Assembly (NCBI GenBank): GCA_048886685.1
Contig: JBHLKM010000003.1
Location: 96,001-160,000, forward strand
DNA: 64,000 nt
DNA from: Candidatus Hodarchaeota archaeon
GTDB taxonomy: Archaea > Asgardarchaeota > Lokiarchaeia > Sigyniarchaeales > SOKP01
Direction: 5' to 3'
In this document: positions 51,576-61,300 of the stretch, piece after piece
How the letters are laid out: each line of letters starts with the position of its first letter
How positions within the stretch are numbered: the stretch's first letter is position 1
Translations under genes and position numbers: made by a program
Notes under the pieces: generated by a model
Seen by the model: only the letters and a program-made list of their open reading frames with translations
Databases searched by the model: none
What the model was told of the DNA's origin: nothing

Positions 51576-52741
51576 TGTGTGATACATTTATAGCGCTTGG
51601 GAATGCTAGTAAAGATGGAAATGTTATTTTTGGTAAAAATTCAGATCGCCCTTTTGATGAAGTCCAGTTAATAGTCTATGTCCCTCGAGAAAAGCATGAA
51701 AGTGGAGACCTTTTGAAATGTACATATATCGAAATTCCTCAAGTTAATGAAACTCATGCTGTTCTTTTGAGTCAACCTTGGTGGATGTGGGGTGCAGAGA
51801 TGGGTACAAATGAGTATGGTGTAGTAATAGGGAATGAAGCGGTACATACACTAGAACCAATAAGGAATATTGGATTATTAGGGATGGATTTATTGAGATT
51901 AGGTCTTGAACGAGGAAAAACAGCAAGAGAGGCGTTGGATGTAATTATTGAGTTGTTAGAAACATATGGTCAGGGTGGAGGTTGTGCTTATAATGATCCA
52001 AGTTGGATGTATCATAATTCATTTATTATTGCCGATCCTGATGAGGCTTATGTTTTAGAAACTGCTGATGAGTGGTGGATTGTTGAAAAAATAAACAGTG
52101 TAAGATCTATATCCAACAGTATCTCTATTAGGGGTAAAGGGGATCTGCGAAGAGATGGAATTATAAATCATGCTATAAAGAGAAATTACTGTAAGGATGA
52201 AAATGATTTTGATTTTGCTACAACTTTTTCAGGATCTCTAATATCTACGATGCCTTCACCTCATTCTAGGGAAGGAAAGGCTACTCTATTATTGAAAGAA
52301 AATATAAATCAAATTTCTCCAAAATTGATGATGGACTTTCTTAGAGAACATCAAGCAGGAATTTGCATGCATGGGGGTTTTGAATCAACTGGTTCACAAG
52401 TTTCTCATCTAATGAAAACCAAGAAATCAATTCATTGGTTTACAGGAACTACTCTCCCTTGCGTTAGCATATATAAACCTTATGCATTTCCTATTAATGG
52501 CCAAAAATTCTATGATTCAGGACCGTATTCAAATATTAACTCAGATTGGTTTTGGTGTAAACATACCATGTCAAAACCTATAAAAAGGAAAAAAGAAATT
52601 AGAAATATTGAAGATTCCCTTATTTCTAAAATTGAAAAGCTGTTAAGTCAGGGAGACAAAATCTCTGAAGATGAATTTATAGAAAAAATAGGAAAGCTTA
52701 ATATTGAAGCTTGGAACAAATCCTACCAGATGTCTCAATAA
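51575..52741 (+). CDS. Secernin-like peptidase C69 (Ntn hydrolase), copy 2
   Basis: Same motifs as copy 1; TGATG stop/start overlap. Confidence 0.9.
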   Translation: MCDTFIALGNASKDGNVIFGKNSDRPFDEVQLIVYVPREKHESGDLLKCTYIEIPQVNETHAVLLSQPWWMWGAEMGTNEYGVVIGNEAVHTLEPIRNIGLLGMDLLRLGLERGKTAREALDVIIELLETYGQGGGCAYNDPSWMYHNSFIIADPDEAYVLETADEWWIVEKINSVRSISNSISIRGKGDLRRDGIINHAIKRNYCKDENDFDFATTFSGSLISTMPSPHSREGKATLLLKENINQISPKLMMDFLREHQAGICMHGGFESTGSQVSHLMKTKKSIHWFTGTTLPCVSIYKPYAFPINGQKFYDSGPYSNINSDWFWCKHTMSKPIKRKKEIRNIEDSLISKIEKLLSQGDKISEDEFIEKIGKLNIEAWNKSYQMSQ

Positions 52742-53327: not shown

Positions 53328-55349
53328 ATGTCAGATCAAGTTTGCCGATTTTGCCAAAGATATGTGCAGTTGACTTATTATTGTGATGAGTGTGGTGCTA
53401 ATTGTTGTTCTGACTGTTTACATGAAAAAAAAGTTGATTATTATCTTTGCCAAGAGTGCAATTCGAAAAATATAGGTCCTCCTGATTCTGATAAAAACAA
53501 AGTATGTAATGATTGTGGTAATGACAATATAATTAAAATAAACCAACCTTTAAAATCATGTCCAAAGTGTGGATCTCACAAAATTATTAACATTTATGAA
53601 AAGAAAGAAGATTTAGAAAAAGAATTTTTAGAATTGATAAAAAATTCTCGCTTATTTATTAATCCCTTAAGAGAGGTTCTCGATAAGTTATTTATCCTTC
53701 AACAAGAAATAAAAAAAGCCAGAGATCCTCCTATAAGATGTTACCATTTTCCTAAAATGGAATCTGATTTATTAGCTCTCTTTAAATTGTTTGTTTACGT
53801 GCAAAATACATTATTTGATAAAATTAATGCCCACTTTCATCAAATGGTTTTATACAAAGAATACTTTTTTGATATTTACTCTCAACCAAATTCTAATATA
53901 ACAATTATTGAAGGTATCTTTGATAATCTCCTTAGAAGTCATAATTCTATCAATGATTTTGTATTCAATAACGTTAAGACTTTTAAAGATAGTATCGCTT
54001 CTTTTGAAGCTAACCTAAAATTTGTTGAAAAAATTAGTCTTTATTTCTCCACTTATAAGAAATTAATAAAATTGGCAGAAAAAGAAAAACCTGTCTATGC
54101 AATCTACGCTAAACTAGTCAATGGACTGAACACAGATGATAGGTTTAAGAAAGACAGAGGAATTTTATTTATCACTAATTTAGATTTATCTTTCATTCAT
54201 GAGTTTGGTTTAAGAAAGAAAAAGCGGGCATTGATTTTTAAAGCCCCAGTTCGAGATTTAATTAGGATAAAAGAAAAAGGAAAAGTCTTCAAAAAATTAT
54301 ACCTTGAATTTGAGTATGGGAAATATGAATTTACATTACCAAATAATGCTCTTTCTAGAGTTATAGAATATATTCTATTGGCAAGAACATTTGACGAATC
54401 CACCGTTTATGATAGTAAATCAGCAACTAAACTCCAAAGAGTCGAAATCGATTTAAATGAGCTAGCAAATTTTATTGAAGAAAGCATTAACTCATTCTTT
54501 AGCCTAAAATGTCAATACAATAAAAGTTCTCAAAAGATAAGTAGGTATAATCAAATTTTTCCTCAATTTTATAATGGGCAAACTAACCAAATTCCAATTT
54601 CAATGCATCAATCTCGAAATCAAGAATTTCCTTATCAAAGTGAAAATTTAGGACAGTTAGAGATGAATCAGGCATTTATTCAAAATCCAAATAATCAATA
54701 TCTTCCATTTTACATTCGAGGAGTAGGTCAATCTCCTCAAGGTTTATATAACTATATTAGCTCTTTGAATCATTATCAACAATCCAACCCAGCCCAAAGT
54801 AGGTTCTTTCCACAAAATTTCATCAATCCAAATCGCTTTCAAAATTATAATCCTCAAAAAATCAAATCCAACTTTGAAGAGCTTCTCGATATTGAAGAGA
54901 ACGATATTCTAACGAGAAATTTAGAACAAACACAAGCTTTTAATCCACAATACCGGAATCAAATAGAACCTGAAATTTTAAATGATAGAAATAGCTTTCA
55001 AGAATTTAACAAAAATCATTTATCTGACCTGTTTAATATAAATAATTCTTTAACTCAGCAATCTTATAAGCATAAAAGGAAGTTGTTTAAATTAGATCGA
55101 GAAAAACATGAAAAAATGCTTGAACTAGAAAAGGAAAGATACAGTCTTAAAGCAACGTTGAAAAAACTTGAAACTAAATTTGATCAAGGATCCATATCAG
55201 AAAGCGATTATTTTCGTACCTATAGAAATTTAAATAAAGAAATTTATTTAATCGATAATAAAATTCAAAAATTAAGACAGAGTTTAGAAGAATTAGAATC
55301 CCTTAAACAAAACAGCAGAAATTTTGATAATAAAAGATTCTATACCTAG
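53328..55349 (+). CDS. Multidomain protein: Zn fingers, helical region, PH/GRAM-like domain, Q/N-rich linker, C-terminal steadiness-box-like (Vps23/ESCRT-I-like) coiled coil
   Basis: Six CxxC pairs; GILFITNLDLSF; Q/N/P/Y-rich tract; KLETKFDQGSISESDYFRTYRNLNKEIYLI. Confidence 0.6.
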   Translation: MSDQVCRFCQRYVQLTYYCDECGANCCSDCLHEKKVDYYLCQECNSKNIGPPDSDKNKVCNDCGNDNIIKINQPLKSCPKCGSHKIINIYEKKEDLEKEFLELIKNSRLFINPLREVLDKLFILQQEIKKARDPPIRCYHFPKMESDLLALFKLFVYVQNTLFDKINAHFHQMVLYKEYFFDIYSQPNSNITIIEGIFDNLLRSHNSINDFVFNNVKTFKDSIASFEANLKFVEKISLYFSTYKKLIKLAEKEKPVYAIYAKLVNGLNTDDRFKKDRGILFITNLDLSFIHEFGLRKKKRALIFKAPVRDLIRIKEKGKVFKKLYLEFEYGKYEFTLPNNALSRVIEYILLARTFDESTVYDSKSATKLQRVEIDLNELANFIEESINSFFSLKCQYNKSSQKISRYNQIFPQFYNGQTNQIPISMHQSRNQEFPYQSENLGQLEMNQAFIQNPNNQYLPFYIRGVGQSPQGLYNYISSLNHYQQSNPAQSRFFPQNFINPNRFQNYNPQKIKSNFEELLDIEENDILTRNLEQTQAFNPQYRNQIEPEILNDRNSFQEFNKNHLSDLFNINNSLTQQSYKHKRKLFKLDREKHEKMLELEKERYSLKATLKKLETKFDQGSISESDYFRTYRNLNKEIYLIDNKIQKLRQSLEELESLKQNSRNFDNKRFYT

Positions 55350-55431
55350 CTCTTTATTAATACATATTTTATGCAAATTCTGCATATTCTACGTTATTTA
55401 AATTTATATTCTTTTAAATTTTATAGAAGAT

Positions 55432-56448
55432 ATGGATAATCCCCCGTTTTCCACAGTAGTTGGAAGTTGGCCATTGAGCAATAATGCGGAGAATATGCTT
55501 AGGGTATTTAATGATCTAATTCAAATTGGCATTGATTATCCATGTTATCCTCAATTAATTTCTATGATTTCTCAGTTTTTAATCCCACTATCAAATGAAA
55601 TTGCCCAATTAGAAGAAATTAACAACAAATTTTATTTATCAGATGATTTCGAAATCCCAAAAATCCCGATAGCTTTAGAGTATGGAGAATTCATAAAAAA
55701 TTTTTTTAATGAACGAGTACAGCTTTCAAAACAAATTATGGGAACAAAAGCCTGTTTAACAGGGCCAATAACGTTAGCATCTGAAATTATATTAAAAGGT
55801 GAAATTGCAAATGACCTCAAACCTAGAATCTTTACAGAATCTAGAGCAGTAATGGTAGATTGGATCGTGGAAAAATTAGCAGGAATTATGAAAAAGTTAG
55901 GAAAAGCATATAATAGTATGGGTATAAATATAATTTCTATGGATGAACCTCTTTTGGGTATTTTAATTGGAAGAAAGGTGCTTTTTCACTCGGAGGAGTT
56001 CATTGTAGAAATTCTAAATGAGGCTATCTCAGAAATAAAGTCTTTATCATCAATTCATGTGTGTGGCAGAATTAGCCCTAAATGCCGTGACATACTCCTT
56101 CAAACTGATGTGAACATATTGGACCATGAGTTTAGAACTAATGAGGAAAATTTTGATATTTTTCAAAAAGAGCATTTAGAAAATAATGATAAATTATTAG
56201 CTTTAGGCACAGTTAAATCGAAGTTCACACCAATAGAAGGATGTGAAATCAATGATTACATCGAAGGAATAAATTCTTTAGAAGCTTATATTAGAACAGC
56301 TATTAAACAGTATGGTAAGGAAAATTTAATAATCAAGCCCGATTGCGGTTTTTTATCTTTAAAAGATTCATTTGGGGAAGAAATCGGTTATGAAATAGCA
56401 ATAAGAAAAGTAAAGAATATGGTACAAGCTCTAAAAAGAATTAAATAA
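55432..56448 (+). CDS. MetE-like methionine synthase (single catalytic barrel)
   Basis: VVGSWP, LTGPITLA, MDEP, IHVCG, DHE, PDCG Zn ligands. Confidence 0.82.
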   Translation: MDNPPFSTVVGSWPLSNNAENMLRVFNDLIQIGIDYPCYPQLISMISQFLIPLSNEIAQLEEINNKFYLSDDFEIPKIPIALEYGEFIKNFFNERVQLSKQIMGTKACLTGPITLASEIILKGEIANDLKPRIFTESRAVMVDWIVEKLAGIMKKLGKAYNSMGINIISMDEPLLGILIGRKVLFHSEEFIVEILNEAISEIKSLSSIHVCGRISPKCRDILLQTDVNILDHEFRTNEENFDIFQKEHLENNDKLLALGTVKSKFTPIEGCEINDYIEGINSLEAYIRTAIKQYGKENLIIKPDCGFLSLKDSFGEEIGYEIAIRKVKNMVQALKRIK

Positions 56449-56491
56449 CTAATAATATTCTTTTAATGTGTAAAAAATTTATGAAAAAGTG

Positions 56492-57139
56492 TTATCCTTG
56501 TAATTCTTTTCTTAGTTTTTCTATTTCTTTATTTAATTTTTCTTTAGATTTTACTTCGTCTAATTCTTCAATTTCATACTCTGGAATATATTGTAAATCA
56601 TCTGAAGGAATTTCTGGCATTGCCCCTCCTTGGTCAAGAAGCATTTCCGTCTCAAGTTGATTCAATTCCTCTGTCACATCAATCGCAAGATCAATTTCAG
56701 GGTCTCCTGCCAAAATATCCGCTGCTTCTTCAATTTCTGCAACATATGCCTCAGAGTCTTCCGCAATTTCTGCAACTTTAGCAGGTGAAGCTCTTGTGGC
56801 GATATACTCCAATTCATCGCGTATTCCACTAAAGATGTCTCCTGTAGCTGAGATTAATTGGCCCTCCTCAATAGCCTGAATCTGACGTTCTATTTTTGCC
56901 CTAATGTTATTTGTTCTATCAACTTTAGCGTTATAAGATTTGTATTGAATAAGATAATTTTTTGCGCGATCTTTTTCACCCCGTTTCAATGCAATTTTAG
57001 CATTCTTACGGCTTATCTCAGCTCGTTTGGTGTAATTTCTATTAATTAAATTTAATCTATGAATATGGCTCTTAGCTTTTGATACTAAGTCGTCTTTCTC
57101 TTTACCTTTCCGAGGAAAGAGCTTTTTTTTTAATCCCAC
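56492..57139 (-). CDS. ESCRT-III Snf7-family protein (Vps20/32/60-like)
   Basis: Amphipathic N-terminus GLKKKLF; basic hairpin AKIALKRGEKDRAKNYL; acidic C-half; EELNQLE; MPEIPS. Confidence 0.88.
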   Translation of the reverse strand: MGLKKKLFPRKGKEKDDLVSKAKSHIHRLNLINRNYTKRAEISRKNAKIALKRGEKDRAKNYLIQYKSYNAKVDRTNNIRAKIERQIQAIEEGQLISATGDIFSGIRDELEYIATRASPAKVAEIAEDSEAYVAEIEEAADILAGDPEIDLAIDVTEELNQLETEMLLDQGGAMPEIPSDDLQYIPEYEIEELDEVKSKEKLNKEIEKLRKELQG

Positions 57140-60922: not shown

Positions 60923-61300
60923 TTACTTAATTAATTTTCCAAGAACCTCATTCCACTTTTCTAAATCACGCACATACCATGCAATTGAATCAGTTACTCC
61001 TTTTTCATTTGTAAATATTACATTTAAAAGAGGTCTTAACACTGATCTGTACATATGAGATTTTGGATTTTTTATCTCAATGATAGATTTAACTGGAATT
61101 AATATTTTTTTTTTAGGTTTCCACATACCAAAGAATAGTTCCTCTTCTGTTAGCAATAGAACACCATTTCCACGAATTTTACCTAATCCTAACAATTCTT
61201 GTCCGAAAAAATTACTTGAATCGTCTTTAATTAATACATCCTCATCCTTATATTTTTTATGGATTTCATTTATCCGTTTCCTAAATAATTTTTTTAACAT
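60923..61300 (-). CDS. Small PH/GRAM-like domain protein
   Basis: RGNGVLLLTEEELFF...ILIPVKSIIEI...C-terminal W-containing helix. Confidence 0.6.
   Translation of the reverse strand: MLKKLFRKRINEIHKKYKDEDVLIKDDSSNFFGQELLGLGKIRGNGVLLLTEEELFFGMWKPKKKILIPVKSIIEIKNPKSHMYRSVLRPLLNVIFTNEKGVTDSIAWYVRDLEKWNEVLGKLIK

Follow-up and report, generated by a model that had tools for sequence, protein, structure and literature searches.

The closest described relatives of the protein studied here form an Asgard archaeal family linked to ESCRT, the endosomal sorting complexes that are required for transport. Makarova et al. (2024, mBio; PMC10936438) designated it Znr_PH_CC_SB or Znr_CC_PH_SB, after three zinc ribbons, a PH domain, a coiled coil (CC) and a steadiness box (SB). 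According to these authors, the family is absent in eukaryotes, probably ancestral in Asgard archaea and likely a component of ESCRT-I; from the analogy with Vps36 they expect its PH domain to associate with membranes. The corresponding asCOG, cog.011556, was used by Lu et al. as the 'Steadiness/Vps23 box' family. We analyzed a 64,000-nucleotide stretch of the genome of a Candidatus Hodarchaeota archaeon (contig JBHLKM010000003.1; below, the window), and in particular the locus at 53328-57139, which encodes a 673-aa protein of this kind, a MetE-like protein and a Snf7 protein. Membership of the 673-aa protein in Znr_CC_PH_SB is virtually certain. We further hold with good confidence that the best overall explanation is a Lokiarchaeial ortholog of this family, acting as an ESCRT-I-type adaptor without a UEV domain.

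The family bears on the question of how membranes and ESCRT sorting were first linked, a point that is already in print. Through it the Asgard ESCRT-I has a PH domain and zinc fingers, whereas in eukaryotes the UEV domain is found on Vps23 and the GLUE and NZF domains on Vps36. The present analysis adds that adjacency to a B-type ESCRT-III gene is the most conserved linkage of the adaptor gene across the phylum, and it provides evidence that the MetE-like gene between the two is a local insertion.

The locus and its published counterpart

The window has a G+C content of ∼30% and its relatives are Lokiarchaeia-type Asgard archaea. The locus consists of three open reading frames (ORFs), whose coordinates agree exactly with the first-pass annotation of this DNA, as does its placement of the Snf7 gene two genes from the adaptor gene:

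53328..55349, + strand: gene of the Znr_CC_PH_SB family, putative adaptor (ORF, 673 aa)
55432..56448, + strand: MetE-like gene, cobalamin-independent methionine synthase family (ORF, 338 aa; Pfam Meth_synt_2, E 2.6e-9)
56492..57139, - strand: predicted ESCRT-IIIB gene, Vps20/32/60-type Snf7 (ORF, 215 aa; Pfam Snf7)

The 673-aa protein and the Lokiarchaeum protein P0039 (650 aa), named 'SB domain-containing' in UniRef, share 64% identity over the full length. The window also shares a 12-gene order with the entry for that Lokiarchaeum protein, As_004-p_01543 (Lokiarchaeum GC14_75), in Table S2 of PMC10936438, where the genes are listed as RidA, PepD, L35Ae, cog.011556, MetE, Vps20 (on the opposite strand), DHQS, Mer, GH57, cog.005314 and CAAX protease. 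This entry is almost certainly Lokiarch_16740, which Caspi and Dekker describe in their 2018 review as a Vps23 homolog, with Lokiarch_16760 as a Vps20/32/60 homolog; the two locus tags lie two apart, which fits the arrangement in the window. The GC14_75 member belongs to the same family and has the same three Zn sites, helical region, PH domain and C-terminal SB, as well as flanking genes that include a MetE-like gene and a convergent Vps20-type gene. The difference in length (673 vs 650 aa) falls within the Q/N-rich linker, and otherwise the two differ in nothing of substance. The first-pass annotation had singled out the full architecture as the part worth examining. This implied novelty does not stand, since the family (under either of its names), its architecture, its proposed role and this gene order are already published, and the present copy adds no new architecture.

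Domain architecture of the 673-aa protein

The protein was analyzed by comparison with 56 homologs, with identity down to about 20%, and by AlphaFold2 (AF2) models built on their alignment. The model of residues 1-405 reached a mean predicted local distance difference test score (pLDDT) of 92.1 and a predicted template modeling score of 0.81. The following parts were distinguished:

53328..53591, + strand: zinc module with three predicted Zn sites, residues 1-88 (12 conserved Cys; beta-rich in the AF2 model)
53592..54068, + strand: predicted helical domain of four helices, residues 89-247 (AF2, pLDDT mostly >93)
54069..54407, + strand: predicted PH-like (GRAM-type) domain, residues 248-360 (VIA-align; beta-sandwich capped by a helix)
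54408..54539, + strand: predicted helices after the PH-like domain, residues 361-404 (AF2 helices 363-370 and 377-404)
54540..55046, + strand: Q/N-rich low-complexity linker, residues 405-573, 169 aa (composition)
55047..55346, + strand: predicted SB-type helical hairpin, residues 574-673 (Pfam, family profile, AF2, Foldseek)

The resemblance of the C-terminus to the SB of Vps23/TSG101, proposed in the first-pass annotation, was borne out by both profile and fold comparisons. In the AF2 model of residues 545-673, built on the family alignment, two 46-residue helices (574-619 and 625-670) are joined by a turn at D619-S624 (DQGSI), and the core has pLDDT >95. The motif FDQGSISESDYFRTYRNLNKEIY, quoted in that annotation, corresponds to residues 618-640 and covers the turn together with the beginning of helix 2. 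As regards the long stalk coiled coil that Vps23/TSG101 shares with Vps37/Mvb12, no more than the N-terminal half of helix 574-619 lies ahead of the SB core, and in the monomer model it is folded back into a long hairpin. The C-terminal block conserved in the 56 homologs reads TL..L...F..G.IS...Y...Y..LQ.ELY.I.

Pfam Vps23_core gives a sub-threshold match to residues 591-648, in which positions 7-64 of the 64-position profile are aligned (E 0.0016, 18.8 bits), and it is found in 16/56 family members, with a best E of 7e-6. A profile built from the 56 members was searched against 177,635 PDB sequences. Its top matches are structures of the yeast Vps23 core (2p22_A, E 4.3e-5; 2f66_A, 1.5e-4; 2caz_A, 5.5e-4), followed by TSG101 (E 0.011), VPS37B (0.03) and CdvA (9s9i_A, 0.17). 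The alignment to the Vps23 core spans the whole hairpin, with the Gly of the turn matched. In the Foldseek search with the hairpin model, ranks 1-7 are all occupied by ESCRT-I headpiece chains, and the Vps23/TSG101 chains superpose with a root-mean-square deviation (rmsd) of 0.7-0.8 Å over 53-57 columns. At the level of the family, these profile and model comparisons establish the predicted hairpin as homologous to the Vps23 steadiness box, with a resemblance that exceeds chance.

The opposite possibility is that of a generic zinc-finger and coiled-coil protein, with a SHOCT-like or unspecific C-terminus, that lies near Snf7 by chance. Helical hairpins are common and the Pfam Vps23_core match is sub-threshold, as this explanation would have it. 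However, the Pfam scan gave no SHOCT match at E ≤ 1, profile and fold comparisons alike rank Vps23, TSG101 and VPS37 highest in the PDB, and in 13 GTDB families the gene again lies next to ESCRT-III. We regard this explanation as effectively refuted.

In addition to the homologous hairpin, the adaptor resembles Vps23/TSG101 in that its low-complexity linker sits where TSG101 has a Pro-rich region. It differs from them in lacking a UEV domain, the place of which is taken by the zinc fingers, the helical domain and the PH domain. The absence of UEV, noted in the first-pass annotation, was confirmed: Pfam finds neither UEV nor UQ_con in the 673-aa protein, of which residues 1-88 are the zinc module instead, and at E ≤ 1 the scan returned Vps23_core, DZR and GvpG and nothing else.

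The clustered Zn fingers of that annotation are represented by 12 Cys arranged as six CxxC pairs, which are invariant or at least 90% conserved in the 56-homolog alignment. Eight of them (C6, C9, C19, C22, C27, C30, C41, C44) have B-box-1-like spacing, and a four-Cys zinc ribbon (C60, C63, C78, C81) follows. A reading of the C27-C44 site as an NZF was rejected: the spacing fits, but the W/TF/N signature residues are absent from the sequence.

The Cys spacing raises the alternative that the protein acts in the ubiquitin system, its eight-Cys part forming a RING/B-box cross-brace of an E3 ligase or ubiquitin receptor that would modify or regulate ESCRT-I, with the hairpin used for docking only. 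Pfam zf-B_box matches 14/56 family members (best E 2.4e-5) and ANCHR-like_BBOX 7/56, the family profile matches the RNF4 RING and TRIM B-boxes in the PDB at E 0.003-0.03, and some homologs are named 'B-box zinc finger protein' by NCBI. Hatano et al. (2022), in the legend of their Supplementary Fig. 8, name RING, CC, PH and SB among the domains shown for the GC14_75 ESCRT-I proteins; going by this legend, the RING-CC-PH protein shown there is probably Znr_CC_PH_SB. On the other hand, all B-box and RING matches are below the curated cut-offs, Zn-ribbon families match other members equally often, and the weak PDB profile matches of the module include both B-box/RING and Zn-ribbon proteins. Furthermore, the module consists of three zinc ribbons according to Makarova et al. 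(PMC10936438), and B-boxes are mostly not catalytic. We consider such an enzyme or regulator of the ubiquitin system improbable.

The helical bundle proposed in the first-pass annotation is recovered as four AF2 helices (89-110, 112-132, 144-181 and 188-242). The loop between helices 2 and 3 carries the motif R132...H140.P..E145 (LR.......H.P.LE; nt ∼53721-53762), in which R132 is invariant and H140 and E145 are at least 90% conserved among the 56 homologs. Apart from the Cys, no feature of the family is more strongly conserved. The helical domain has no rigid structural match in the VIA-align comparison of the 1-405 model, where DH-PH alignments that take in the helices have rmsd 8-18 Å, and a search of the ESM Atlas with residues 86-250 gave no usable match. 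A DH-PH (RhoGEF) or dynamin-like reading of the helical and PH parts was also considered, as the top Foldseek matches are DH/PH fragments (TM-score 0.22-0.29, rmsd ∼20 Å). It was rejected as a shared arrangement and not a shared fold, because only the PH part superposes in VIA-align.

The AF2 model was compared by VIA-align with 48,161 PDB representatives. Residues ∼243-360 align with the PH-like domain of Lam6 (Z 13.3, rmsd 2.5 Å, 109 aligned) and the PH-GRAM domain of MTMR2 (Z 12.9, rmsd 2.8 Å, 107 aligned), as well as with many PH/PTB domains at Z 10-12 (dozens of PH domains exceed Z 10). The GLUE domain of EAP45 ranks below the GRAM-type domains (Z 10.2, rmsd 3.3 Å, 96 aligned). Pfam matches across the family include bPH_3 (21/56 members), GRAM (6/56) and Vps36_ESCRT-II (2/56, the 673-aa protein not among them). 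By its model, this region can be placed firmly in the PH superfamily. The 'PH/GRAM/GLUE-like' domain of the first-pass annotation is present, but it is not specifically GLUE-like, as GRAM-type domains score higher. The domain is net basic, with 24 K+R against 15 D+E (net +9), and a conserved KKK loop is present.

The combination of a PH-fold domain with zinc fingers is shared with Vps36/EAP45. The adaptor differs from Vps36 in lacking the EAP30 tandem winged-helix pair (no Pfam match; among the homologs only the variant P0216, described below, has EAP30). It also differs in that all its conserved Cys lie at residues 6-81, before the PH domain, whereas in yeast Vps36 the NZF is inserted in the PH domain.

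Distant homologs can be aligned to about residue 395-400. Beyond this point the linker is rich in N (17%) and Q (14%; 31% Q+N), and its C-terminal part is modeled at pLDDT 46-62 (residues 545-584). Among the 56 homologs, the span between PH and SB (residues 395-590 in the window protein) is between 6 and 444 residues long.

Conserved linkage to ESCRT-IIIB

The Snf7 protein of the window exceeds the Pfam Snf7 cut-off (41.6 vs 27.3 bits) and matches the 'Vps20/32/60-like protein' of PDB entry 9fn1 (chain 9fn1_U) at E 3.7e-106, compared with 1.4e-4 for a Heimdall ESCRT-IIIB. 9FN1 is a Lokiarchaeota ESCRT-III filament that binds and deforms vesicles (Melnikov et al. 2025). A- and B-type ESCRT-III references separate cleanly by bit score, and by sequence the window protein is assigned to ESCRT-IIIB (Vps20/32/60 class). 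The sole further Snf7 of the genome is of the CHMP2A/CHMP1B type and lies on contig 10 beside Vps4 and Vps22, in a Vps22-Vps25-Vps4-ESCRT-IIIA cluster.

Homologs of the adaptor were found in 209/300 sampled genomes of the phylum. All 262 homologs come from Asgard-type sources, and 1.8 billion proteins clustered at 50% contained only 131 representatives, which indicates that the family is Asgard-restricted. In its own genome the adaptor is present in a single copy, as judged by a profile search of the genome's contigs.

The gene neighborhood was examined in 36 loci, drawn from 17 of the phylum's GTDB families and annotated with ESCRT queries and Pfam checks. In 12/17 families (f1, f2, f6, f8, f10, f14, f17, f18, f20, f21, f23 and f28) the adaptor gene and a B-type ESCRT-III gene converge. 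The two are usually immediate neighbors; otherwise one or a few genes intervene, and in one f2 locus the distance is 7.7 kb. Typically, Vps25-Vps4 come first, then ESCRT-IIIA and ESCRT-IIIB, then the adaptor. In f9 the adaptor gene abuts the sole ESCRT-III gene at the locus, which is A-type, and in f11 it abuts Vps25 (Vps25-Vps4); the f12 contig ends at the adaptor gene and is uninformative. The linkage to Snf7, which the first-pass annotation had described as reported in Lokiarchaeia, is thus kept far beyond this class.

Within family f1, to which the organism studied here belongs, ESCRT-IIIB has left the Vps22-Vps25-Vps4-ESCRT-IIIA cluster and is still located beside the adaptor gene. The MetE-like gene intervenes between the two in f1 genera g1, g5, g6, g7 and g8. 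It is missing in genera g3 and g4 and in the single f2 locus with abutting genes, and there nothing separates the two ESCRT genes. Its absence in g3 and g4 identifies the MetE-like gene as a local insertion, and it is not part of the ESCRT system.

At the f21 locus, an ESCRT-IIIB-like fragment (L029:10920-11159, - strand; ∼80 aa, E 2e-6) directly follows the adaptor gene, and a full ESCRT-IIIB gene is found 2 kb on; the fragment may be a remnant of a duplication.

A variant of the adaptor was observed in f23, a narrow lineage (L034:9001-10803, + strand, genome G052), where the Zn-helical-PH module is joined not to the SB but to an EAP30 winged-helix pair of the Vps22 type. The module matches positions 7-404 of the family profile (E 7.5e-93). 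The winged-helix pair matches Pfam EAP30 (E 1.8e-11), is 37-42% identical to Vps22 and is closer to eukaryotic Vps22 than to Vps36. The fusion is kept in three sequences (P0216, P0252 and P0253) that are 64-75% identical to each other. The fusion occupies the same slot beside ESCRT-IIIB, has a Vps36-like domain order and lies 6 kb downstream of an operon of UEV-Vps23, Vps28 and Vps22. The observations agree with a local domain swap. The variant supports a module that straddles ESCRT-I and ESCRT-II; descent of Vps36 from this module does not follow from it.

Proposed role and the remaining ESCRT components

The role proposed here is that of a membrane-side ESCRT-I-type adaptor feeding ESCRT-IIIB. 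The basic PH/GRAM-like domain, perhaps together with the helical domain, would hold the protein on the membrane, while the three-zinc N-terminal module would bind a partner, which may be cargo, ubiquitin or another ESCRT protein. The long, disordered Q/N-rich tether would lead to the Vps23-type hairpin, and this hairpin would pack with the N-terminus of Vps28 and/or with the hairpin that Makarova et al. reported for Asgard Vps22. In the order of events that we infer, this would link the membrane site first to ESCRT-II/Vps25 and next to the polymer of the ESCRT-IIIB encoded by the neighboring gene, and this polymer would recruit the ESCRT-IIIA and Vps4 encoded on contig 10. An adaptor role and the analogy with Vps36, both suggested in the first-pass annotation, are plausible, and the same analogy was drawn by Makarova et al. 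(2024; PMC10936438). As for the mechanism as stated, we are evenly divided.

Several points weigh against this mechanism. The adaptor and Snf7 genes are convergent and therefore not co-transcribed, and in families f3 and f29 the adaptor gene has no ESCRT neighbor up to a distance of ∼9 kb. PH-like folds can bind peptides and proteins as well, so membrane binding is not assured. In the single sequence, the Vps23_core score of 18.8 bits is below the curated cut-off of 26.8. The Foldseek E-value of the hairpin is ∼0.2 and a helical hairpin is a simple fold; weak E-values are expected for a fold this small. Finally, the family profile missed the Vps28 and Vps22 of the same genome at E ≤ 0.01, and the sequence accordingly does not point to either hairpin as the partner.

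Regarding these partners, Vps28 of this genome is encoded on contig 1 (211468-212028; Pfam VPS28, 36.8 bits) and Vps22 on contig 10 (142152-142808). In yeast two-hybrid assays, Hatano et al. (2022) reported that a Lokiarchaeota 'steadiness box protein' contacts Vps28 and Vps22. A motif of the Lokiarchaeum ortholog was not found in the supplements of that paper, and the two-hybrid protein therefore cannot be equated with Znr_CC_PH_SB. The same authors found no canonical UEV-Vps23 in Lokiarchaeum GC14_75. In the genome studied here Pfam UEV had no match, in a search whose control gave no match anywhere either.

The conservation of the gene pair also bears on another explanation, in which the protein, its PH domain on the membrane, nucleates or anchors ESCRT-IIIB itself and bypasses Vps28 and ESCRT-II. 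Such a direct recruiter would be comparable to crenarchaeal CdvA, which is likewise a membrane-side recruiter of the ESCRT-III system and has a hairpin that two papers argue to be related to the SB (PMC10936438; bioRxiv 10.1101/2023.07.25.550441). In line with this explanation, the conserved neighbor of the adaptor gene is ESCRT-IIIB and not Vps28, Vps22 or Vps23, the pair stayed together in Lokiarchaeia after leaving the Vps4 cluster, and the family profile weakly matches CdvA. This match, however, is not significant (E 0.17). Unlike the adaptor, CdvA contains a PRC barrel as well as an E3B peptide, through which it binds the winged helix of CdvB, and Asgard ESCRT-IIIB lacks the winged-helix extension by which CdvB binds CdvA (PMC10936438). 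In addition, SB-type hairpins are known to pack with other hairpins and not with Snf7 cores, and for direct recruitment there is no known interface. We consider a CdvA-like role rather unlikely. Also unlikely is the proposal, drawn from the survival of the convergent pair after the ESCRT cluster broke up in Lokiarchaeia, that in Asgard archaea the zinc-PH-hairpin protein is the direct membrane recruiter or nucleator of ESCRT-IIIB. It would then be more than an additional ESCRT-I subunit and would correspond functionally to CdvA. Were this true, the f23 variant would point to one membrane module pluggable into either ESCRT-I or ESCRT-II, and an f23-like fusion would be of the kind that could have produced Vps36.

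Among other proteins with ESCRT-like segments is a 461-aa protein (L002:286-1668, + strand; G000 contig 13, ∼75250-76632), which combines an IFT52 GIFT domain (E 1.1e-10) with a Vps23_core/SB-like segment at the C-terminus that scores sub-threshold, and which looks like one of the multidomain SB proteins mentioned for Lokiarchaeia by Makarova et al. The third Vps23_core match in the genome, on contig 17, is a false positive and corresponds to a GH3 glycosidase. A ∼600-aa protein (L008:1471-3258, - strand; G000 contig 5) contains PCI, DDRGK and UFM1-ligase-like winged-helix repeats, as well as a C-terminal Vps28_C-like domain that scores 22 bits, just below the cut-off.

A scan of the locus for bacterial-type promoters and terminators stayed at chance level; the models are bacterial and the result is not meaningful for an archaeon. 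Farther along the window, a 125-aa protein (60923-61300, - strand) matches a GRAM/PH-like Pfam family weakly (E 0.2). Compared by BLASTP, it shows no similarity to the PH domain of the adaptor, and on this ground a relationship between the two was rejected. The position of its gene is kept in Lokiarchaeum GC14_75, where it is the uncharacterized cog.005314. On the other side of the locus, two tandem paralogous genes of C69-family dipeptidases are located at 50382-52741 (+ strand), where Lokiarchaeum GC14_75 has a single PepD gene preceded by an ArgE-type gene.

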